Assembly: GCF_044342615.1 (NCBI RefSeq)
Contig: NZ_JBIIPN010000001.1
Coordinates: forward strand, 1-52,875
Direction: 5' to 3'
DNA from: Daejeonella sp.
Lineage (GTDB): Bacteria > Bacteroidota > Bacteroidia > Sphingobacteriales > Sphingobacteriaceae
DNA length: 52,875 nt
Below, one piece after another: positions 8,008 through 21,561 of this stretch. A program made the position numbers and the translations under genes. Under the pieces are notes generated by a model, which was not told the DNA's origin, made no database searches, and saw only the letters and a program-made list of their open reading frames with translations. Numbering within the stretch: the stretch's first letter is position 1; each line of letters opens with the position of its first letter.

Positions 8008-8595
8008 ATGAAAATATTGAATTATTTAAAAGCTAACATTGGGAATGTTTTTTTTATTTTATTTATCTCTGTTGTATTTTTCAGCACAGATGTAAGAGCA
8101 TTTTTGATAAGAGGTTTAATGTTTACTGGCTTATTTAATGCAGAAGCAAGTGTAGAAACAGAAAAATCGGGGAGCAATAAAATGATTCCGCCTCCTATGA
8201 TTTTCAGATCGGAAAATGGCGAAATCATAAATACTGCTGAGCGGAATGGTAAAGTTTATTTTATTAACTTTTGGGCTACTTGGTGCCCTCCATGCCGCGC
8301 TGAAATGCCCTCCATCAATACATTAGCATCAAAAATAAAAAACAAAGATAAAGTAGAGTTTATTATGGTTGATGTAGACGCTAAAGTTAAAGCTTCTGTA
8401 GCATACATGAAAACCAACTCATTCAATTTAAAAGTTTATACAAGTGAATCTGGAATACCTGAAAATATATTTGGTGGGAGCCTCCCAACAACCGCAATTA
8501 TTGGTCCCGATGGCACCTTAGTTTTTCACCATACAGGCATGGCAGATTATAATAATCAGAAAATGATTGATTTCTTAAATACCCTTAGTAAGTAA
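8008..8595 (+). CDS. TlpA/ResA family thiol-disulfide oxidoreductase
   Basis: N-terminal TM, INFWATWCPPCRAEMP (CxxC), SLPTT cis-Pro motif. Confidence 0.93.
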   Translation: MKILNYLKANIGNVFFILFISVVFFSTDVRAFLIRGLMFTGLFNAEASVETEKSGSNKMIPPPMIFRSENGEIINTAERNGKVYFINFWATWCPPCRAEMPSINTLASKIKNKDKVEFIMVDVDAKVKASVAYMKTNSFNLKVYTSESGIPENIFGGSLPTTAIIGPDGTLVFHHTGMADYNNQKMIDFLNTLSK

Positions 8596-8652
8596 GGTGA
8601 AAAAGACTAAATGAATAAAAAATCGTTAATTTTGCATTATAATTCCAATCAA

Positions 8653-9117
8653 ATGAAAAAAATCCTATTTACAATCCTATTAAGCATTAGCATAATTTCT
8701 ATTACTAAGGCTCAAACCAGCATAAATACTAATCAATCTTTGGATAAAAGAGATAATTGGACTCAGAAAGATTTAATAGAACCGGCTGCTTTAGTTGCAA
8801 TACTTTCAAATCCGAAGGCTAAGCAACCTTTAATTTATAATATTGGGGTAGTTGAAAACATCAAAGGAGCAAAAAACCTTGGTGCAGCTAGCGAAAAAGA
8901 GAATTTGGAGAGATTAAGAAAAACACTATCGGGACTTCCGAAAACAAGTTCTATTGTAGTTTATTGCGGATGCTGTCCATTTAGCAGATGCCCTAATATT
9001 CGCCCTGCAGTAGCCATGTTAAAAAGCATGGGATTCACTAATGGAAAACTCTTGAATATTCCTACAAATGTAAAAAAAGATTGGATTGACAAAGGTTATC
9101 CGCTAGCAGGCAAATAG
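8653..9117 (+). CDS. Secreted rhodanese-like domain protein
   Basis: Signal peptide from ATG 8653; a TAATTTTG promoter box at 8627-8634 argues against the 8611 start. IVVYCGCCP active loop; C-terminal DWIDKGYP rhodanese end motif. Confidence 0.8.
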   Translation: MKKILFTILLSISIISITKAQTSINTNQSLDKRDNWTQKDLIEPAALVAILSNPKAKQPLIYNIGVVENIKGAKNLGAASEKENLERLRKTLSGLPKTSSIVVYCGCCPFSRCPNIRPAVAMLKSMGFTNGKLLNIPTNVKKDWIDKGYPLAGK

Positions 9118-9137
9118 TTAATGAGTTTATTAAAAAC

Positions 9138-9171
9138 AAAAGCCTGCTAATTCATTAATTAGCAGGCTTTT
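9138..9171. terminator. Bidirectional intrinsic terminator
   Basis: aaaagcctgctaatt-catt-aattagcaggctttt: perfect 15-bp inverted repeat between convergent genes. Confidence 0.85.
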
Positions 9172-9189
9172 ATACTTATTTTCTATTCG

Positions 9190-10098
9190 TTATTTCCTCT
9201 TTCCTTTGAAAATCCCTCCAGCATTTAATTGAAGTCCAATTTCAAAAGTTCCCGTTGCATAGCTCTTTAATGCCTGAACTGGAGTGTTATAAAGTACTAA
9301 TAACTGCCACTGCTTCAACTTCTGATAAGTTAAACCAAAGCTCATGCTTTTATTCGTGTGATACATGCTCATAAAGCCTAATTGATCATCTGGTGTGCGA
9401 AGCTCTAGTCCCATATCCAGAATATCATTGAAGTTCTTAACCCCTCTGTAAACTAGTTTGGGATGCACCTGCCAGTCCGACACTTGGGTCATGTACGTAA
9501 AAGCAGTCATGAACGTAGCATAATCGGCAATTTCATTATCCTCAATCTGTAACTGATTTTTAAGATTACTGATTGATCCCTCAATTCTGAACTTCTTATC
9601 TGAATAAGCCATTCCAAAATCACCATCCAAAATGTTCTCTTGATCATTATAGCGCATGGCACTTAAATCATTGCCAGAACCTACAATGTTTTGAGTGTTT
9701 AATGAATTGGTTTGCAATCCTAATGATATTCCGAAATGCAGTTTTCCTTCATCATTGTTTAATGGAAGGTGATAAGCATAAGTCGCCTGAAGCTTAGATC
9801 TAGTTAGTAATCCCGCTTCATCCTTATAAAAGTTTAAGCCCACGCCTACCTTCTCGCCACCATAATCAGCCGTTACCGATAAATTTCTTGGCGAGCCTTG
9901 AATATTACTCCACTGATTCCGATATCCCATATTTAGGCGGATGCCTTGATTTACTCCAGCCATTGCCGGATTAGCTAAATACGTATTCTGGAAGTATTGA
10001 GCAGCCATCGGATTGATCTGCGCACTTAAATTAGTGTTGCCCAACAACAGTGTAATTATTAGTAAAAAAAGACCTTTAAACATGTTTTTTAGGTACAT
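9190..10098 (-). CDS. PorP/SprF family type IX secretion system membrane protein
   Basis: Signal peptide, QYFQNTYLANPAMAG, YRNQW, TYAYH, GTFEIGL; immediately downstream of a type-B CTD gene. Confidence 0.92.
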   Translation of the reverse strand: MYLKNMFKGLFLLIITLLLGNTNLSAQINPMAAQYFQNTYLANPAMAGVNQGIRLNMGYRNQWSNIQGSPRNLSVTADYGGEKVGVGLNFYKDEAGLLTRSKLQATYAYHLPLNNDEGKLHFGISLGLQTNSLNTQNIVGSGNDLSAMRYNDQENILDGDFGMAYSDKKFRIEGSISNLKNQLQIEDNEIADYATFMTAFTYMTQVSDWQVHPKLVYRGVKNFNDILDMGLELRTPDDQLGFMSMYHTNKSMSFGLTYQKLKQWQLLVLYNTPVQALKSYATGTFEIGLQLNAGGIFKGKRK

Positions 10099-10125
10099 AT
10101 AGATAATATTTATTGTGCTATAGAT

Positions 10126-11706
10126 TTAATTGATGATGGTAATAAAGCCCTTCTTCTCACCTTCGCCATTGTTCAACGTAATCACATAGTAATAAGTCCC
10201 TTCAGGTAATGCGGAGCCATTAAACATCCCGTTCCAATCATTCGTATAATTAATTTTTGAATAAACTATTCTGCCTGAACGGTCTAAGATCATTACCTTA
10301 TTGGATGGATAAGCTGCTAAGTTTTCAATCGTCCAAACATCATTCTCTCCATCTCCATTTGGTGATAAAATATTACTCGGCGTGATATTATAATCTTCTC
10401 TCACGGTCACGGTAATGGCTACCCTTGTTTTGCTTCCAAAGCGGTTCGTTACTTCTACCGTATACGTAGTTGTTGTTTTTGGTGTGGCTATTGGGTTACT
10501 AATTGATGTGGAGTTTAAGCTAGTTGAAGGGAACCATTCATAGGATATAATATCTGATCCGCTCACAAATAGATCAGAGCTATAACCCATGCTGATGGAA
10601 GGGTTTGCACTTGCTGCGGTTCTTGTATTTGGATAGGTTTCATTGCCTGTCCCTGTTAGGACTGGCCTTCTAGATATCGTGATTGTAAATGCTTGTTCAT
10701 GACTAAGGCCGCCTCTATCTGTTGTTCTTAATCGTACAGCATAGCTGTTTTTAGTATCAAACTTAAATACCTGCGCGGCACGTATTTGTCCGTTTAAAAT
10801 AGTGAATGCCGCATTATCTGTAGAACCCGCACCTGCTACTAAAGAGTAGCTATGGGTATCGCCAGCATCAACATCTGTGCTAGATAAGAGTCCGATCAGG
10901 TCCCCAACATTATTGTCTTCATAAAGATTCAGCTTAGTGACTGCAATGGCTGTTGGAACTTCATTTACGTCATTCACAGCGATGGTGAGTGCTTTCTCAT
11001 CAAATCGGCCGTAGGCGTCTGTAACACGTAAGCGAACAGAATAAGACTTTTTTGTTTCAAAATCCAAAGCAGTATTCGTTTGAACTTCTGAATTGTTAAT
11101 AATAAAGGATGCATTATCCGCAGATCCTGTTCCACTTACCAGCGTATAGGTGAATTCTTCTTCTGCTAAGTTTTCATTTGTACCGGCTAAAGTAATCACC
11201 TTAGTGCCAAGAGGGCTATTTTCTGCAATGGAGCTGGCTGTTAAAATCAGATCAGGCGCAAATACAGCAGAAGAAATTTCGCCTAAAGCTAGTTTGGTCA
11301 TATTGGCAGACAAGCTATTATTTGCCAGGTCATTTACCGTAGCTTGGCGATACCATTTATTTGCACTAAATGCAAATAGTTGCAAGCTTTGTTCGGCTAG
11401 TCCATTTAATTCAGAATCAAAGTAATCCTTTTTCAAATTACCCGTAAAGGCGGCAGTTGGATTCGTAAATTGATAGACACGAGAAATCTGATTGCCTAGC
11501 TTTGCATTGGAAACAGATACTCGTTTCAGGGAATTATCGCTCAAGCTAAAGTCTTCTGTGGGTTTCAAACTTATACCATCCGCATGAAGGAGAGCACCTG
11601 CAGTAATTGTCAATTGCTCTGCATTACCCACATGTATCAAGGAGCTACTTTGCGAAAATGCTTCGCATGTAATTAATGTGAAAAGGAAAAGTAATGTGTA
11701 TTTCAT
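10126..11706 (-). CDS. T9SS type-B (gliding-motility-associated) CTD protein with two cadherin-like domains
   Basis: Signal peptide from ATG 11706; cadherin motifs (AENSP...LDFETKKSYSVRLRVTD...VNDVNEVP; EDNNVG...DVDAGD); C-terminal NILSPNGDGENDVW...DRSG...WNG...GTYYYVI. Confidence 0.9.
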   Translation of the reverse strand: MKYTLLFLFTLITCEAFSQSSSLIHVGNAEQLTITAGALLHADGISLKPTEDFSLSDNSLKRVSVSNAKLGNQISRVYQFTNPTAAFTGNLKKDYFDSELNGLAEQSLQLFAFSANKWYRQATVNDLANNSLSANMTKLALGEISSAVFAPDLILTASSIAENSPLGTKVITLAGTNENLAEEEFTYTLVSGTGSADNASFIINNSEVQTNTALDFETKKSYSVRLRVTDAYGRFDEKALTIAVNDVNEVPTAIAVTKLNLYEDNNVGDLIGLLSSTDVDAGDTHSYSLVAGAGSTDNAAFTILNGQIRAAQVFKFDTKNSYAVRLRTTDRGGLSHEQAFTITISRRPVLTGTGNETYPNTRTAASANPSISMGYSSDLFVSGSDIISYEWFPSTSLNSTSISNPIATPKTTTTYTVEVTNRFGSKTRVAITVTVREDYNITPSNILSPNGDGENDVWTIENLAAYPSNKVMILDRSGRIVYSKINYTNDWNGMFNGSALPEGTYYYVITLNNGEGEKKGFITIIN

Positions 11707-11792
11707 GTGATGTTTTTTAAAAGAAAAGTTGAATAACAAAATGTATTACTTTTCATTTTTAAAGCCTTGGATTTCAGAACATTTCATATATA

Positions 11793-13739
11793 TTACAAGG
11801 TAGAATATGATGTAGCATAAATAATTTGAACACTTGGTGAACCTTGATCTATCGAGCACGTATTATAAGAAATTGAAAAATCCGAATCGTTCACCCCTGT
11901 TTTTACTCGTATAGAACCAACACTATTAACCGCAGATGAAACAGTTAAATAATAATCTGTATTTGCTGTAACAGATATTGGGGAAGAAAAAGTGAATGTT
12001 AATATACCGTTACCACTATTAGAATTGGACGAACCTAATAAAGTTGATGTGTTAACTGTAGCAATTGTACTATTGAATGCACCTCCACCAGGTGCGCAAG
12101 CACTTAAACTACTATAGATTGAGAATACTGCATTTGTTGCATTATAAATTTCAAGGGAAATTGAAGTAATATTTCCTGTAACTGTTGGCCGCATTCTTAT
12201 TACATTCTTTCCAAAATCAAAAAATGAAAAATTTGAATTTGCACCAGTAAAACCTAATGAACTTTGTTTTGGAGACTTAAATAAATAAAAAGTACCAGCG
12301 CTTCGGTCATAAACTACATCACCTGGATTATAATTTGAAGTATTAATTGGCCCGGCTATATTAGTTACAAATGTATTGCCAGCAGGAGCAGAAACACTTC
12401 CCCAACTCGCAGTCCCATTCCCATCAGTAGTTAAAACCTGACCATTTGTGCCAGATACTTTAGGATAGGTAATTGAACCCGCGGTCAAAGTGCCTGAAGT
12501 TATCACATTACTTACACTAGCATTTCCTAATTGGATAGTGTTATCTGTTCCAACTTCAGCTCCATAACCGATAGCTGTTGAATTAGAAATAGTTGCTCCT
12601 GCACTAGTAGTTCTAGCTTGTGTTCCTAAAAAAGTATTGTTAGAGCCTGTTGTTAAATTATCACCGGATCGAGTTCCAACACCAACATTATTATTTCCAG
12701 AAGTGCTTATTAAGGATTGGTTACCTATTGCAGTATTATTTGAACCACTAGCTACATTAAACATAGTTTCGGCTCCAACCGATGTATTTCCTCCACCTGT
12801 TGTCAAACCTATCATATTAGCATAACCAACGCCTGTATTATTATCGAAAGAAGTTCCTTTATAATCTTTCAATGCAAAAAATCCCACGGCAGTATTTCTA
12901 GTTCCAGATGCATTACTTGAATATAATGCTCCGCCACCAATAGCTGTATTTTGATCATTTTGGCCAGTACCTTTACCAATTGTTAAGCCATTGACCGTTA
13001 AATCATATGCGCCTAAATTAACTGCAGCATTGGCTCCTGTATAAGGTATACCACCTGTAGGAGGCGTAATCCACCTTGGTGCTCCTGCTCCAGTTGAACT
13101 TAATAGTTGTCCGGAGCTACCTGCACCAGTATAGGCATGTGCAGTACCTGTTCCATATCCAATACCCCCAGCTGTAGCTACGGCAGTTGAATTAGTACCG
13201 CCATTGGCAATAGCTACAATTCCAGTTAATGTGCCTGCAGCAGCAGCTACAGTAATATCAGAACTTCCATCAAATGCTACTCCATTGATATTTTTTGAGG
13301 CTGCTAATTTAGTGGCTGTTCCTGCATTGCCTGTAATGGTGGTTTGATCTCCTGTATTTGTCCCAGTAATGGCTGCAAGCTTTGTTTTTTCTGCTGTGGT
13401 ATAATCATTCGTAGATAAATCTTTTCCAGTTACTTTATCAACTTTTAGGTCTGTATCCGCTTGATTAACTATCAATTTCCAAGCTGTCCCACTGTAATAG
13501 TAAAAACCACTAGGCGCTGTAGTTTGATAAATCAATAAGCCTTGCGCAGGACTACTAATTGCGTCTTTTTGCGTAGCTGTAATTCGAGGAATCAATATTC
13601 CCTTATTATTGGCATCAGAAGTAACCTCTAATGCGGCAGAGGCTGCTGGTGTGCTCGTGCCGATGCCAACTTGAGAGAATGCATTCGAAGCCGTTAACAG
13701 GCTAATGGAAATGAATAGATACTTAAAATAGATTTTCAT
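11793..13739 (-). CDS. Secreted mosaic fibre/adhesin-like protein (QVGIGT N-terminal domain, phage-tail-fibre-like motifs, NTAxG beta-repeats)
   Basis: Signal peptide then QVGIGTSTP...KGILIPR...GLLIYQT...GFYYY...W; Gly/Thr/Asn-rich repeats; no recognisable T9SS CTD. Confidence 0.75.
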   Translation of the reverse strand: MKIYFKYLFISISLLTASNAFSQVGIGTSTPAASAALEVTSDANNKGILIPRITATQKDAISSPAQGLLIYQTTAPSGFYYYSGTAWKLIVNQADTDLKVDKVTGKDLSTNDYTTAEKTKLAAITGTNTGDQTTITGNAGTATKLAASKNINGVAFDGSSDITVAAAAGTLTGIVAIANGGTNSTAVATAGGIGYGTGTAHAYTGAGSSGQLLSSTGAGAPRWITPPTGGIPYTGANAAVNLGAYDLTVNGLTIGKGTGQNDQNTAIGGGALYSSNASGTRNTAVGFFALKDYKGTSFDNNTGVGYANMIGLTTGGGNTSVGAETMFNVASGSNNTAIGNQSLISTSGNNNVGVGTRSGDNLTTGSNNTFLGTQARTTSAGATISNSTAIGYGAEVGTDNTIQLGNASVSNVITSGTLTAGSITYPKVSGTNGQVLTTDGNGTASWGSVSAPAGNTFVTNIAGPINTSNYNPGDVVYDRSAGTFYLFKSPKQSSLGFTGANSNFSFFDFGKNVIRMRPTVTGNITSISLEIYNATNAVFSIYSSLSACAPGGGAFNSTIATVNTSTLLGSSNSNSGNGILTFTFSSPISVTANTDYYLTVSSAVNSVGSIRVKTGVNDSDFSISYNTCSIDQGSPSVQIIYATSYSTL

Positions 13740-14057
13740 ATTAATTAAGGTAGATGTTGAGAATAAAATTTATTTATATTAATAGATTTTACATTTAAAA
13801 ATTCTAAGAAATTCAATCAAAAGCGAACATTAAAATTCTTGAATAGGACTCCTAACAATAAAATTCATAACAGTCATAGAAAATTGCTATTGAAATATTA
13901 TCAATAGTCAAAACATAACAGCAAAAATTAAATTATTAATCAAAGGTGAAAATCTATCCTAAAAAAAAGCATTTTGGTAAAGCCAAAAATCTACCACTTT
14001 TGAAATTTGGTAGAAAAAAACTTTATTGAAACGCTGGCCAAGCATTACACTGAAAAA

Positions 14058-15224
14058 CTAATCTGAGAAATATTGAAGAGGCATTTTCCCTGTTTCCTTC
14101 TTAAATGCGCGGTAAAAGGTGGTCATACTAATAAACCCAGACTCAAAAGCAATAGCGTCAATGGTAATTTTCTGGGATTTTAATGGATAGGTATTGATAA
14201 AGTGTTGAATCCTATAATTATTTACCCAGTCGTTAAAATTCTTGCCGATATACTTATTTATCAATGAAGAACATTGATGTATTGGAACTTGGAATGAGTT
14301 GGCTAAATCCATTACGCGATAGGCACAATTTAAAAATGGTTTTTCATGAATCATATAATTCTGAATACACTTAACCATCTCAAGCTCCGTATCGCTGTTT
14401 TTCCTTGAAAGTTGTACTAATTCTTTTTTGTCTATTAACTCTACAGACTTGTATTTTTCTCCAATAGAAACCAAGATATAGCCATATAATATCTTTGGAT
14501 TATGAACCAAGAGCAATAAAATAGAAAGAAACATAAGCAGTCCAATCCCAAAAACCCACAAATAAATACTTTGATCTTCATCAAAAAATGAACCCTTGGT
14601 GCGAAAATAAACGGTAACAATATTTAAAATATGGAAACCTGTAATGGTAGACAGTCCCCCTAAAAGCCAAATACGTTTAGTTGTACCCCCGTTTTTGTTT
14701 TTATTCAGCTGTGATTTAAAAAGCACCCAAAAGGATAGAATCAAATAAATTGTAAGTAATATTGGTCTGAAATAAAGATAAACTTCCGAAGGGAACAAGC
14801 CCGTATCAGCAACAATAGCAATGTTTTTAGTTTTAATAAGCTCTTGCGTGATAGCATCCCAATTTATAGAAGACGAAAAATACCAAGGAAGATCATCTAT
14901 AAAAGAAACTAAACCTGGCAAAAAGTGCAAATAATCAATTTTGCGTAATTTCTTTTGATTATTTACTATTCCAACAGTATATAAATAAATAAAACCTGGT
15001 GCAACGTAATATAGTGGGCAAAATAACTTTAACAGAACCGGAAAATAGATAATTAGCTCATTATCAATTAATAAAAAAACTGCTATTTGTGTAAAACGAG
15101 CAAATAAAAATAATCCAAGCAAGTAATTAAGATATCGTATTCCCCTTTTTGAAATAAAATAGTGAACAGAAAACGACAGTATTACAATAAGTGCAAAAAC
15201 TATAGTTAAACTTACAAATGGCAT
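14058..15224 (-). CDS. Membrane-anchored AraC family transcriptional regulator
   Basis: Several N-terminal hydrophobic segments; C-terminal KNFNDWVNNYRI...IAFESGF...TFYRAFKKETG AraC HTH. Confidence 0.9.
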   Translation of the reverse strand: MPFVSLTIVFALIVILSFSVHYFISKRGIRYLNYLLGLFLFARFTQIAVFLLIDNELIIYFPVLLKLFCPLYYVAPGFIYLYTVGIVNNQKKLRKIDYLHFLPGLVSFIDDLPWYFSSSINWDAITQELIKTKNIAIVADTGLFPSEVYLYFRPILLTIYLILSFWVLFKSQLNKNKNGGTTKRIWLLGGLSTITGFHILNIVTVYFRTKGSFFDEDQSIYLWVFGIGLLMFLSILLLLVHNPKILYGYILVSIGEKYKSVELIDKKELVQLSRKNSDTELEMVKCIQNYMIHEKPFLNCAYRVMDLANSFQVPIHQCSSLINKYIGKNFNDWVNNYRIQHFINTYPLKSQKITIDAIAFESGFISMTTFYRAFKKETGKMPLQYFSD

Positions 15225-15554
15225 GAAATTCTAAGGCTTTAGATTGATATAAATATATCAATAATTTAAGCTTCAAATAGCATTTAAAAGAATTTTTAAT
15301 GGAATAAATAATATAATAAAATATGATAATTTATTTAACTTTAAGAAAATAAAGAATCGCTTATTTTAGCAAAAAGAATTTTAATTTCTCAATTGGGCGC
15401 TCTCTATTTCATCGATTTGCTTTATCGAATAATTTGAAGGCGAAGAAGCTGTTTAACAATTTATAAAAGGCCTAATTTTAGACAGAAAATGATAGAAAAC
15501 GTGGCGAATACTAATATTTCGATAACAAAATTAGAGCTAAAGATTTTTTAAAAC

Positions 15555-17463: not shown

Positions 17464-18621
17464 ATGCCAACAGAAAAGCAAATTATACATATTGATCAAG
17501 ATGCATTTTTTGTATCAGTAGAGCTTTTAAAGAACTCTTCGCTTGTTGGGAAGCCGGTGATTATCGGGGGCACATCCGACCGTGGAGTGGTTGCTTCTTG
17601 CAGTTATGAAGCCCGAAAATTCGGCATTCACTCGGCCATGCCCTCCCGAATGGCCAAACAGCTTTGTCCCCATGCCATCTTCATCCGTGGCAACATGGAA
17701 GAGTACAGTAAATACTCGCATATCGTTACTGATATTTTGCAGGAAAAGGTTCCTCTTTTAGAAAAAGCCTCCATTGATGAGCATTATATCGACATGACGG
17801 GCATGGACCGATTTTATGGCTGCATGAAGTTTGCGCATGAACTCCGACTTCATGTGATGAAAGAGACAGGTCTGCCCCTCTCCTTCGGCTTATCCGTCAA
17901 TAAAACAGTCTCAAAAATAGCCACCAACGAATGTAAACCAAATGGAGAGCGCCAAGTGCCTCTTAATGAAGTCCAGCCCTTTTTAAACCCTTTATCAATC
18001 AAAAAAATACCCGGCTTAGGACAAGCAACCTATGTAAAACTCAGCGAAATGGGCGTTCGTTTGATTTATACCTTATCGCAAATACCTCAAGAACAGATAT
18101 TTAAGGTGCTTGGAAATAATGGAATAGGCTTATGGCAAAAAGCACAAGGAATTGATAATTCGCCAGTTGTGCCTTATCGGGAACAAAAATCAATCGGCAC
18201 TCAAAGCACTTTTGAAACGGATAGCATTGATACACAGACCATTAAACAACTGATTACATCCATGGTTAGCGACCTCTGTTTTCAGCTCCGAGCACAAAGA
18301 AAACTGACTGCCTGCATCACGGTAACCATCCGCTATTCGAATTTCGAAACGCATACGCAGCAAAGCAAAATAGCCTATACTTCCCTCGATTCGCTGCTCA
18401 TTAGCAGGGCAAAAGAGCTTTTCGATAAATTGTATAATCGCCGAATGCTACTCCGTTTGGTGGGCGTTAAATTTTCGCAATTGGTGAGCGGACATGAACA
18501 AATTAGTCTGTACAGCGCTTCCGAGGAGCAATACAAGCTCTACCAAGCCATGGACCGCATCAAAAATCGCTTTGGGGAAAAGGCTGTAAAACTAGCATCC
18601 ACCATTAATATTAAGCTTTAA
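17464..18621 (+). CDS. dinB: DNA polymerase IV (Y-family)
   Basis: HIDQDAFFVSVE, SYEARKFGIHSAM, SIDE catalytic motif, KPNG, IPGLG HhH; C-terminal QISLY clamp-like motif. Confidence 0.93.
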   Translation: MPTEKQIIHIDQDAFFVSVELLKNSSLVGKPVIIGGTSDRGVVASCSYEARKFGIHSAMPSRMAKQLCPHAIFIRGNMEEYSKYSHIVTDILQEKVPLLEKASIDEHYIDMTGMDRFYGCMKFAHELRLHVMKETGLPLSFGLSVNKTVSKIATNECKPNGERQVPLNEVQPFLNPLSIKKIPGLGQATYVKLSEMGVRLIYTLSQIPQEQIFKVLGNNGIGLWQKAQGIDNSPVVPYREQKSIGTQSTFETDSIDTQTIKQLITSMVSDLCFQLRAQRKLTACITVTIRYSNFETHTQQSKIAYTSLDSLLISRAKELFDKLYNRRMLLRLVGVKFSQLVSGHEQISLYSASEEQYKLYQAMDRIKNRFGEKAVKLASTINIKL

Positions 18622-18624
18622 GGC

Positions 18625-21561
18625 ATGTATCTGAATGTTCATTCTCAATATAGTTTGCGCTATGGCACCCTATCTATCGAAAATTTGATAGATCAAGCCA
18701 AAGCTTTTGGAATAGAACAGATGGCGCTAACCGATATCAATAATTCTACCGGAGCGACCGAATTTATTCGTAACTGCCATGAAAAAGGCATTAGAGCCAT
18801 TACAGGCATCGAATTTAGGCGAGATAACAAACTACTTTACATCGGCATTGCGCGTAATCGCGAGGGAATGAAAGAGCTGAATGATTTTTTGAGCTTCTAC
18901 AATTTAAATAGCATGAGCTTGCCCGATTGCCCTTGGGATTTTCAGAATGCCTATATTATTTATCCCTATTCGCAGGATCATCCACCGCTAAAAGACAATG
19001 AATTTCTAGGAATACCCTACCGCGAATTGAGTAAGCTTTTCGGGAAGCCAATCGCACACATACAAGAAAAAATGGTGGCATTGCAGCCTGTAAGCGTGAG
19101 CAACAGGCTAGAACACCGCCTCCACACTTATTTACGTGGTATAGACTTAAACACCCTTTTATCTAAAATAGGCGATTATGATCGATGCCATGAGGATGAG
19201 ATCCTGCTCTCGCCAGAAAAGATCAAAGAACGTTACAGCTCCTACCCTTTCATCATTCAGAACACCGAAAAATTGATGAATGATTGCAGCAGCACTTTTG
19301 AGAAGGGTTCAAAAAACAGAAAAACCTTTACGGGATATGCCAAAGATGATAAAGATCTCTTGGAGAAGCTCGCCATGGAGGGAATGGAATATCGCTATGG
19401 GCGCTCCAACAAAGAGGCATTAAAAAGGATAAAAAAGGAGCTGCAGGTAATTGATGAATTGCACTTTTCGGCTTACTTTTTAATTACATGGGATATCATC
19501 CGCTATTCGATGGCACGAGGATATTACCATATCGGGCGGGGTTCTGGGGCCAATAGCATCGTTTCTTATTGCCTGCGCATTACGGATGTGGATCCCATAG
19601 AACTCGACCTCTACTTTGAGCGATTCCTAAACCGCCAACGTAGTAGTCCCCCAGATTTTGACATCGATTACAACTGGGATGAGCGCGAAGATGTTCAGGA
19701 TTATATTTTTAAACGATATGGCAGCAAGCATACGGCTCTGCTAGGCACCATGAGTACCTTTAAAGATCGTTCCATCATTCGTGAGATTGGCAAAGTAATG
19801 GGATTGCCCAAGCAGGAAATTGATAGCTTCAGCGACCCCACACGATTTAGTGAAAACCGCGATAATCCCACTTTTGGCAAGATTTTGGCGATTCAAAATA
19901 TGATGCAGGACATGCCTAATCAGCGTTCCATTCATGCAGGTGGGGTACTCATCTCGGAAGAGCCAATCACCTATTACACGGCATTAGATTTACCTCCAAA
20001 AGGCATGCCCGTAGTGCAATGGGACATGTATGAGGCCGAGGCTATAGGCTATGAAAAGTTCGATATTTTAAGTCAGAGGGGTATTGGACACATCAAGGAA
20101 GCCATCCAACTCATTGCTGAAAATCAGCAGAAGAAGCCTGATATTCATGATGTAAAATCCTTCATGAAAGATCCTACAATCAATGCTCAACTCAAGCGTG
20201 GCGATACCATTGGCTGTTTTTACATCGAGTCGCCAGCTATGCGACAATTGATTAAAAAATTAGGCTGCGAAAATTACATCACCTTAGTGGCGGCAAGCTC
20301 CATCATAAGGCCAGGGGTTTCCTCCTCGGGGATGATGAAGACGTATATTCAGAATTACCATGATCCTGAAAATGTGAAATATCTGCATCCGGTAATGAAG
20401 GAATATCTCCAAGAAACCTATGGTGTGATGGTCTATCAGGAGGATGTAATTAAGATTTGTTATCACTATGCAGGCTTAGACCTCACCGATGCGGATGTGC
20501 TTAGACGGGCTATGAGTGGGAAATATCGCTCAAAAAAGGAATTCGACCGACTCGTACAGCGCTTTTTTGATCGTGCCAAGGAAATTGGGCGAGAGGAAGA
20601 AATTACGCAAGAGGTATGGCGACAGGTATCATCCTTTGCGGGATATAGTTTCTCCAAAGCCCATTCGGCCTCTTTTGCCGTAGAAAGCTACCAAAGTCTC
20701 TTCCTGAAAACCTATTTCCCACTCGAATTTATGGTGGCGGTGCTTAATAATTATGGTGGATTTTATCAGCGTTGGCTTTATGTGCATGAACTGAAAAAAG
20801 CAGGTGCAAAAGTACATCTACCCTGCGTAAACAATAGCGAGGCTAAGGTTAGCATCAAGGGCAAGGAGGCTTGGTTAGGCTTTATTGGTATCCAGGGACT
20901 CGAAAGTCGCTTTGTGGAGCTCATTCCCGCAGAACGCAAAGCCAATGGTCCTTACCGAGATCTTGGGGATTTTATTAAACGGACTAGCATTCATCTAGAG
21001 CAGGCTATCATCCTCATCCGACTGGGAGCTTTGCGCTTTACTGGGAACAATAAAAAGGAACTTCTGTGGGAAGTACATAATTATTTAGGCAGCAAAACAA
21101 TCGCGAAGCAGAGCAGCGAATTATTTCATAGCGAAGCAAAAGAGTTTTATCTCCCCGAATTAGAAAGCTCAAATGTGGAGGATGCATACAATGAATTGGA
21201 ATTATTGGGTTTCCCATTGACTATGGATATGTTCGACCTAGTCAAAACGAGCTATCGGGGAGATGTCATGGCCAATGAATTGAGCGAACACATCGGGAAA
21301 ACTATCCGCACAGTAGGCAATTACGTCTGCGAAAAACCAGTCCGAACCAAAAGCAATAAAAAAATGTGGTTCGGCACCTTCCTCGACAAGGATGGTAATT
21401 TCATGGATACCGTCCACTTTCCACTAAGCACGCCAGCATACCCCTTCCGTGGCAAAGGCTGCTACCTCATTGAGGGTAAGGTGGTTGAGGAGTTCGACTT
21501 CCCAAGTATTGATGTCAAGAAATTTGGGAAATTGGGGATTAGGGATAATCCGGTGTTTTAG
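18625..21561 (+). CDS. dnaE: DNA polymerase III alpha subunit, probably the accessory error-prone (DnaE2-type) copy
   Basis: PHP start (LNVHSQYS...ALTDINN), GRGSGANS, PDFDID catalytic aspartates, SIHAGG, KFDILS, YSFSKAHS, C-terminal OB fold; 978 aa; 3 nt after the dinB stop. Confidence 0.93.
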   Translation: MYLNVHSQYSLRYGTLSIENLIDQAKAFGIEQMALTDINNSTGATEFIRNCHEKGIRAITGIEFRRDNKLLYIGIARNREGMKELNDFLSFYNLNSMSLPDCPWDFQNAYIIYPYSQDHPPLKDNEFLGIPYRELSKLFGKPIAHIQEKMVALQPVSVSNRLEHRLHTYLRGIDLNTLLSKIGDYDRCHEDEILLSPEKIKERYSSYPFIIQNTEKLMNDCSSTFEKGSKNRKTFTGYAKDDKDLLEKLAMEGMEYRYGRSNKEALKRIKKELQVIDELHFSAYFLITWDIIRYSMARGYYHIGRGSGANSIVSYCLRITDVDPIELDLYFERFLNRQRSSPPDFDIDYNWDEREDVQDYIFKRYGSKHTALLGTMSTFKDRSIIREIGKVMGLPKQEIDSFSDPTRFSENRDNPTFGKILAIQNMMQDMPNQRSIHAGGVLISEEPITYYTALDLPPKGMPVVQWDMYEAEAIGYEKFDILSQRGIGHIKEAIQLIAENQQKKPDIHDVKSFMKDPTINAQLKRGDTIGCFYIESPAMRQLIKKLGCENYITLVAASSIIRPGVSSSGMMKTYIQNYHDPENVKYLHPVMKEYLQETYGVMVYQEDVIKICYHYAGLDLTDADVLRRAMSGKYRSKKEFDRLVQRFFDRAKEIGREEEITQEVWRQVSSFAGYSFSKAHSASFAVESYQSLFLKTYFPLEFMVAVLNNYGGFYQRWLYVHELKKAGAKVHLPCVNNSEAKVSIKGKEAWLGFIGIQGLESRFVELIPAERKANGPYRDLGDFIKRTSIHLEQAIILIRLGALRFTGNNKKELLWEVHNYLGSKTIAKQSSELFHSEAKEFYLPELESSNVEDAYNELELLGFPLTMDMFDLVKTSYRGDVMANELSEHIGKTIRTVGNYVCEKPVRTKSNKKMWFGTFLDKDGNFMDTVHFPLSTPAYPFRGKGCYLIEGKVVEEFDFPSIDVKKFGKLGIRDNPVF

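Follow-up and report, generated by a model that had tools for sequence, protein, structure and literature searches.

How can a secreted fibre protein that carries no tag of its own reach and remain on the surface of a Gram-negative bacterium? The system for type IX secretion (T9SS) is described as exporting proteins with their own C-terminal tag. A locus of Daejeonella sp. raises this question within the window analysed here, i.e., the whole 52,875-nucleotide stretch at positions 1 to 52,875 (forward strand) of contig NZ_JBIIPN010000001.1, assembly GCF_044342615.1. In this locus, a gene for a fibre protein without a T9SS-type C-terminal domain (CTD) is followed by genes for a CTD-bearing cargo protein, referred to below as the partner, and a PorP/SprF-family barrel. 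Our answer, to which we give an even chance, is that the adhesive fibre, tag-less and predicted to be trimeric, is docked at the surface of the cell by the CTD protein, with probable co-export. The features of the three genes are as follows.

11793..13739, minus strand: CTD-less fibre protein, 648 aa; signal peptide at residues 1-22, read by eye
13464..13673, minus strand: QVGIGT domain of the fibre, residues 23-92, which is PF26696 PTL_trimer (Atlas score 0.92), here called PTL
12510..12980, minus strand: GxNTAxG repeat shaft, tailspike-like, fibre residues ~254-410; phrog_4636, E 2e-15 over residues 281-419
11796..12383, minus strand: variable C-terminal fibre tip, residues 453-648; in 6 of 120 listed homologues
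10126..11706, minus strand: type B T9SS cargo, 526 aa, with a ZU5-like domain, two cadherins, a spacer and a CTD
11257..11643, minus strand: N-terminal domain of the partner (cN), 129 aa, residues 33-161; ZU5/GAIN-like beta-sandwich
10135..10380, minus strand: type B CTD of the cargo; CHU_C, E 5e-27, 94 bits; TIGR04131, 69.8 bits
9190..10098, minus strand: PorP/SprF-family barrel; PF11751; TIGR03519, 161 bits

The initial annotation had described the fibre as bearing a Sec signal but no T9SS CTD, autotransporter barrel or lipobox, and this description held. The signal is recognisable by eye, home-made profiles for type A and type B CTDs scored <=0 bits, so that no cryptic CTD was detected by profile, Pfam gave no match to a C-terminal anchor barrel, and a lipobox is absent since the first cysteine occurs only at residue 548. 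Searches of Pfam and NCBIfam with the fibre returned no match at E 0.1, and PHROG profiles of phage tail spikes and tail fibres (PHROG 4636, 1833) were matched. The neighbouring protein does have a type B CTD, as had been proposed, with CHU_C and TIGR04131 both above cut-off.

The genomic pairing of fibre and partner carries our reading. The cN domain, for which there is no Pfam family, has N-terminal matches in Flavobacteriaceae, Chitinophagaceae and Spirosomataceae, in type A cargo encoded beside PTL genes, and recurs on cargo with a type A or a type B CTD next to PTL fibres. The same position can be occupied by a longer partner family with beta-helix-like repeats (read from the alignment), a related sandwich and a CTD. 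For these long partners, 45 genomes were screened with a profile whose seeds came from other genomes; two second hits in one open reading frame (ORF) and seven hits in genomes without PTL were dropped from the 38 rows. Seventeen of the remaining 29 lay within 5.5 kb of a PTL domain, which was our proximity threshold, vs. 0.33 expected, and these represented 16 genomes and seven family codes. Among ORFs shorter than 650 aa the proportion was 14/18. One of the misses results from a contig break in the source genome, which splits a second locus with a long type B partner, a PorP and a 2,338-aa PTL fibre (C206:1-894 and C134:204-8836); this gene order was also found at three same-genus loci (L225, L229, L230). 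As a control we used type A CTD cargo (the top 150 of 571 hits in five of the genomes of the long-partner search), which lay near PTL in 5/150 cases vs. 3.2 expected. Near fibres the partner family is enriched approximately 50-fold, an enrichment not seen for ordinary type A cargo. A profile of the 34-residue mature N-terminus of the partners, counted with the seed loci excluded, reached at least 6 bits in 11/26 cargo proteins beside CTD-less PTL genes vs. 0/71 other cargo, pointing to the first beta-strands as the element common to short and long partners. The tie between the fibre gene and T9SS cargo with a particular N-terminal module, suggested earlier, is supported. Judged by sequence, the pairing is real and specific, and it is undescribed in the literature searched.

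Large phage contigs carry the pair as well. Eight of 68 viral loci contain a long partner (L112, L114, L124, L126, L128, L131, L132, L136), and in the five of them that were printed (L112, L114, L124, L128, L136) the partner comes after a PTL gene with a signal peptide. In the four loci that were scanned, the surrounding genes are those of a phage (major head protein, RNA ligases, nucleases). Two of the viral partners (L114, L128) have a type A CTD recognised by Pfam, and the phage-borne pair occurs without PorP or AraC. A comparison of the phage-borne partner with the GenBank phage collection gave no match. There is a report of T9SS cargo encoded by phages, without a fibre-partner pair in the parts of the article that were available (PMC7468147).

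Such linkage could also arise with no contact between the two proteins, if they were independent surface adhesins, co-regulated and co-inherited in surface-gene islands. The gene order varies, as the partner may be upstream, downstream or convergent (L308), and each module also occurs without the other; moreover, membrane AraC genes of the source genome flank large surface proteins generally, three paralogues being found beside other large surface-like proteins. We nevertheless regard this explanation as rather unlikely. It fits poorly with an enrichment that ordinary type A cargo lacks, with phages that carry just the pair, and with the smallest partners, of 229-266 aa, which are little beyond cN and a CTD. 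The latter also bear on the cadherin stalk proposed at first: two cadherin stretches are indeed present in this partner, but they are optional.

A further line of evidence comes from fibres that have a tag of their own. In these the layout is PTL, repeats, S74 and a type A CTD, and they often stand in tandem arrays (L043, L299-L301, and others); their existence indicates that this fibre class can, by sequence, be T9SS cargo. A partner was found in 0/11 arrays of self-tagged fibres and in 30/72 CTD-less arrays (Fisher p 0.006, although kin are not independent, a single lineage makes up most of the self-tagged group, and part of these loci supplied the cN seeds). All 30 partners were co-oriented with the fibres, and by CTD class they comprised 17 of type A, 6 of type B and 7 uncalled. 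In the sample of 151 genomes there were 118 PTL hits, in 32 genomes and with up to 20 per genome; PTL was present in 32/120 SprA-positive vs. 0/31 SprA-negative genomes. Separately, at four Flavobacteriaceae loci (L051, L052, L056, L066) CTD-less PTL fibres stand three in a row and T9SS cargo is absent from the vicinity; two of these loci are flanked by a divergent large regulator-like gene. At C22:328-4081 of the source genome, two tandem PTL fibres (449 and 489 aa) stand with a 290-aa glycine-rich, secreted-looking protein and no adjacent partner gene. A second large gene follows large fibres at L077:13251, L087:15273 and L105:15359, and its products have in common an unnamed N-terminal domain, with no CTD seen. 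A locus titled Bifidobacterium (L082), which encodes a PTL fibre together with T9SS cargo of type A, is probably a mis-binned Bacteroidota contig.

These data bear on whether the partner acts only as an anchor, capturing outside the cell a fibre that crosses the outer membrane by another route or is released in vesicles or upon lysis. Among distinct CTD-less PTL genes, 104/165 have neither cN nor a long partner at a distance of up to two genes, a count that includes contig ends, and a trimer assembled beforehand, in which each chain has several hundred residues, may be hard to carry along. On the other hand, self-tagged arrays lack partners, which is what one would expect of a partner that provides the signal for export, and among the genomes searched PTL was found only in SprA-positive ones. 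On balance we consider an anchor-only role unlikely. The reverse possibility is that the partner is an escort only, carrying or chaperoning the fibre through the T9SS, after which the complex or the fibre is released to the medium. The type A CTD, borne by over half of the 30 partners, belongs to a class that can give release as well as anchoring according to the parts of PMC12618676 at hand, and many fibre homologues have self-cleaving S74 domains. However, the present partner is a type B protein accompanied by a PorP of its own, and such proteins are reported to be surface-retained (PMC9143113; PMC12618676, as far as the portions consulted go), and its cadherin spacer fits display; release of this kind appears improbable.

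Several observations weigh against docking with co-export itself, including the partner-less majority of CTD-less fibres just mentioned. The closest relatives of the fibre (L033, L034, L036, L219) have no partner, and the gene upstream of three cN-PorP pairs from the same genus is an unrelated one; the contigs of these pairs end nearby, and in L308 a fibre is convergent just downstream. Neither the AraC gene nor the gene order is conserved, and the 31 SprA-negative genomes belong to a single family. The homology of cN to the long partner is modest (hhalign probability 45%, E 2e-4). In the 151-genome sample, four of 34 cN rows are full length and all four adjoin a PTL gene, of which only that in G150 is independent of the profile seeds; the remaining 30 are lesser matches, most of which fall within giant cargo, in genomes without a PTL hit. 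The seeds of the cN profile were themselves neighbours of fibres, so that the counts in L033-L108 are partly circular. The PTL domain is often repeated internally, is often C-terminal in phage proteins, and is kept in self-tagged fibres that have no partner. The genus Bdellovibrio is not known to have a T9SS. The MAT (mosaic adhesive trimer) fibres of Bdellovibrio bacteriovorus are displayed on the surface, by a route left unidentified in the available parts of PMC10769870; this display also favours the anchor-only alternative.

From the occurrence of PTL in partner-less self-tagged fibres, internal repeats and phage C-termini, we conclude that its main role is probably trimerisation, and its internal and phage positions indicate that it is not an anchoring signal by itself. 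The earlier proposal of a QVGIGT N-terminal anchor is thus retained as to the conserved domain, which is real, but has to be modified as to its function, given that PF26696 is a known trimerisation family. This family is very common, with 34,667 representatives, many of them with several copies per protein. The monomer model of the PTL domain (pLDDT 85.9) resembles the N-terminal domain of Mtd and the collagen XV trimerisation domain at a low Z of 4.7, and has 14 structural matches to phage proteins at E 0.001 or better. Together, the family name and the monomer fold point to a trimer. Sequence searches of the PDB with the fibre, the PTL domain and cN returned nothing significant. A quick tree of 84 PTL domains labelled by partner type (66 columns, mostly unresolved, the 104 partner-less rows being left out) has 13 label changes, which show clustering and not co-evolution. 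In two same-genus genomes, 9 and 14 PTL hits were found alongside one cN hit each; this fits service in trans or, equally, a partner-independent route.

To characterise the body of the fibre, we analysed its homologues (120 listed of 2,554). The N-domain is common to 78 of those listed, the shaft segment 229-410 to 108, and the tip to only 6, self included; other homologues have tips with S74, DUF1566, Fib_succ_major or FN3 domains. The nearest named relatives come from metagenome-assembled genomes of Sphingobacteriaceae/Daejeonella. A YQAV-type N-domain motif, different from PTL, was found in 33 of the 120. At two loci (L097:8158-10270 and L232:7472-9521) YQAV-type fibres are preceded by a different type A mini-protein of 156-174 aa. 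On the basis of these loci, the type of N-domain and the type of partner may change together.

The fibre is, from its domain architecture, a member of a mosaic fibre family like the MAT fibres of Bdellovibrio. As described in the accessible parts of PMC10769870, the latter likewise have a signal peptide, a conserved N-domain, a phage-like mosaic body and swapped tips, with S74 and non-S74 members and several paralogues per genome. Compared by description, the N-domain here, a 70-residue PTL_trimer that no NCBIfam model matches, appears distinct from the ~130-residue beta-rich MAT domain. The Daejeonella host also has a T9SS and a candidate docking partner next door, while the same parts of PMC10769870 leave the MAT surface receptor unidentified. 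With phage tail fibres and tailspikes that have Mtd-like modules, the fibre shares the trimerisation module (PF26696) and the repeat shaft of PHROG 4636 and 1833. It differs from them in having a signal peptide and in standing among ordinary host genes (ORFs between 4.8 and 21.5 kb of the window); most printed viral hits have the PTL module at the C-terminus and no signal peptide.

The model of cN (pLDDT 96.9) was compared with known structures. The top matches were mostly ZU5, FIIND or GAIN domains, and ankyrin ZU5 aligned over 115 of 129 residues with Z 7.2 and rmsd (root mean square deviation) 3.6, and a Foldseek search gave E 8.9e-3; as the Z is below 8, the likeness may be only a common fold. 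The predicted fold places cN near the ZU5/GAIN superfamily (ankyrin ZU5, FIIND, GPS, and bacterial ZU5 as given in the part of PMC3482391 consulted). Unlike autoproteolytic ZU5/GPS domains, cN has no conserved catalytic histidine or nucleophile before the last strand; the position before this strand is glycine here and variable over 20 rows. Binding, and not self-cleavage, is therefore its likely function.

The cargo and PorP genes form a pair that is ordinary for a known class. In this class, type B cargo depends on a cognate PorP/SprF shuttle, to which it remains bound, examples being SprB-SprF, Fjoh_3952-3951-3950 and PG1035-PorP-PorE (PMC12618676, PMC9143113), and no passenger protein figures in the parts of these accounts that were consulted. 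As in those systems, the type B CTD protein, with its adhesin-type cadherins, is directly followed by the PorP-family gene, which starts 27 bp downstream, and the source genome (2.7 Mb, 95% complete) encodes T9SS core components: SprA (on two contig pieces), GldM above cut-off and a GldJ-like protein below cut-off. Unlike in those systems, no PorE-like gene, the tether of the static subtype, comes next (the terminator follows directly after PorP in the ORFs of the locus), and the cargo, at whose start stands a ZU5-like domain that has no name, forms a pair with a CTD-less gene. On contig C203 of the source genome, an OmpA-domain gene, PorE-like by eye, follows another PorP. More generally, no carrier-passenger T9SS route was found in the literature searched, subscription papers being mostly outside it and supplements excluded, nor in the consulted parts of PMC10994853, PMC10202324, PMC3482391 and PMC9950754.

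We also asked whether PorP itself defines the link. PorP hits lay within 5.5 kb of PTL in 6 of 150 listed cases (168 in total, 18 rows unlisted) vs. 1.2 expected, and 7/32 PTL-positive genomes have no TIGR03519 match. Fibre-PorP synteny was rejected as the defining link: a PorP was present in 5/76 PTL-similarity loci, and 7/118 PTL hits were less than 8 kb from a listed PorP. The general tie of the fibre to type B CTD and PorP genes, as first put forward, was not upheld, given that type A partners outnumber those of type B and that PorP is near only a minority. PorP would be required in this locus only on account of the partner's type B tag; partners of type A manage without one. A conserved four-gene module was likewise rejected, as cN was found in 5/24 same-genus genomes and never in the same four-gene order, several of the contigs ending within or just after PorP.

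The remaining two features of the locus are an upstream regulator gene and a downstream hairpin.

14058..15224, minus strand: AraC-family regulator, 388 aa; HTH_18 at residues 307-386; five hydrophobic segments (Kyte-Doolittle)
9136..9173, bidirectional: intrinsic-terminator-like hairpin; 17-pair stem, T tracts on both strands

The four co-oriented genes and the strong terminator were confirmed, with the amendment that the hairpin can be read on both strands and is hence shared with a convergent gene. Terminator-like sites overall numbered 7, vs. 6.3 in shuffles, so that the hairpin is notable for its stem length alone. The convergent side, at 8008-9117 of the window, encodes a TlpA/ResA-like thioredoxin along with a rhodanese-like protein in which a CGCC motif is present. 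The AraC-fibre gap of 318 bp means that AraC need not belong to the operon. Nine membrane AraC homologues were found in 135 PTL- or cN-centred loci, seven of them within 1.3 kb of the PTL or cN gene, and only L222 has the co-oriented order seen here. A dedicated AraC sensor, as envisaged at first, is weakly supported: the membrane HTH_18 protein exists, but its association is infrequent and its order is kept at a single locus. Regulation of the fibre operon by the membrane AraC is plausible from the gene arrangement. No match to a consensus of the Bacteroidota -7 promoter motif was found in the AraC-fibre gap, one being present upstream of AraC at 15533, and when the upstream regions of related fibres were compared by blastn, no common operator emerged. 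Just past the AraC stop, at 13960-14010, TACCA/TGGTA occurs as short repeats, both inverted and direct, which represent a possible operator that is not conserved in the compared upstream regions. Further along the window (17464-21561), tandem DinB-like polymerase IV and DnaE2-like polymerase genes were read by eye.

The assembled sequence is supported by sequencing runs. Run X5, which is not marked as a possible source, covered 30/30 bins of the stretch, and one contig from run X6 spans the junction of the fibre and CTD genes. In related runs the fibre gene holds most of the listed loose ends. The runs containing at least half of the stretch are lake or freshwater metagenomes. The RNA runs X23 and X24 contain small shares of the stretch on short contigs and are uninformative on expression and operon structure. 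The start of the CTD protein is most likely the ATG at 11706 (ORF residue 12), which is also the start given in the Atlas.

Our preferred reading, surface docking of the fibre by the CTD protein, can be laid out in steps. As is established for the T9SS, both proteins would cross the inner membrane by Sec, and the partner would be exported through SprA via its type B CTD and stay bound to its own PorP barrel. The fibre is predicted to trimerise via the N-terminal PTL domain, and this end may bind the ZU5-like domain of the partner, most likely at its first beta-strands. The fibre would probably cross the outer membrane through the T9SS together with the partner. On the surface the cadherin domains would serve as an optional spacer, with the variable C-terminal tip pointing outward and swapped between strains. 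A single partner might also serve fibres encoded elsewhere in the genome.

A wider proposal is possible, though we hold it to be short of probable, namely a two-partner branch of the T9SS in which CTD carriers recognise the PTL domain of tag-less fibres, export them via SprA and mount swappable tips, and from which large phages captured the cassette to decorate their hosts. The pair is small, comprising the 129-residue cN and the 70-residue PTL domain, and could become a surface-display tool for trimeric proteins. If true, such a route of carriers and passengers would bring to the T9SS a very large group of substrates so far not recognised. It would also be a candidate explanation of how trimeric fibres exported by Sec arrive at a Gram-negative surface and become attached there, a question that the MAT fibres raise as well.

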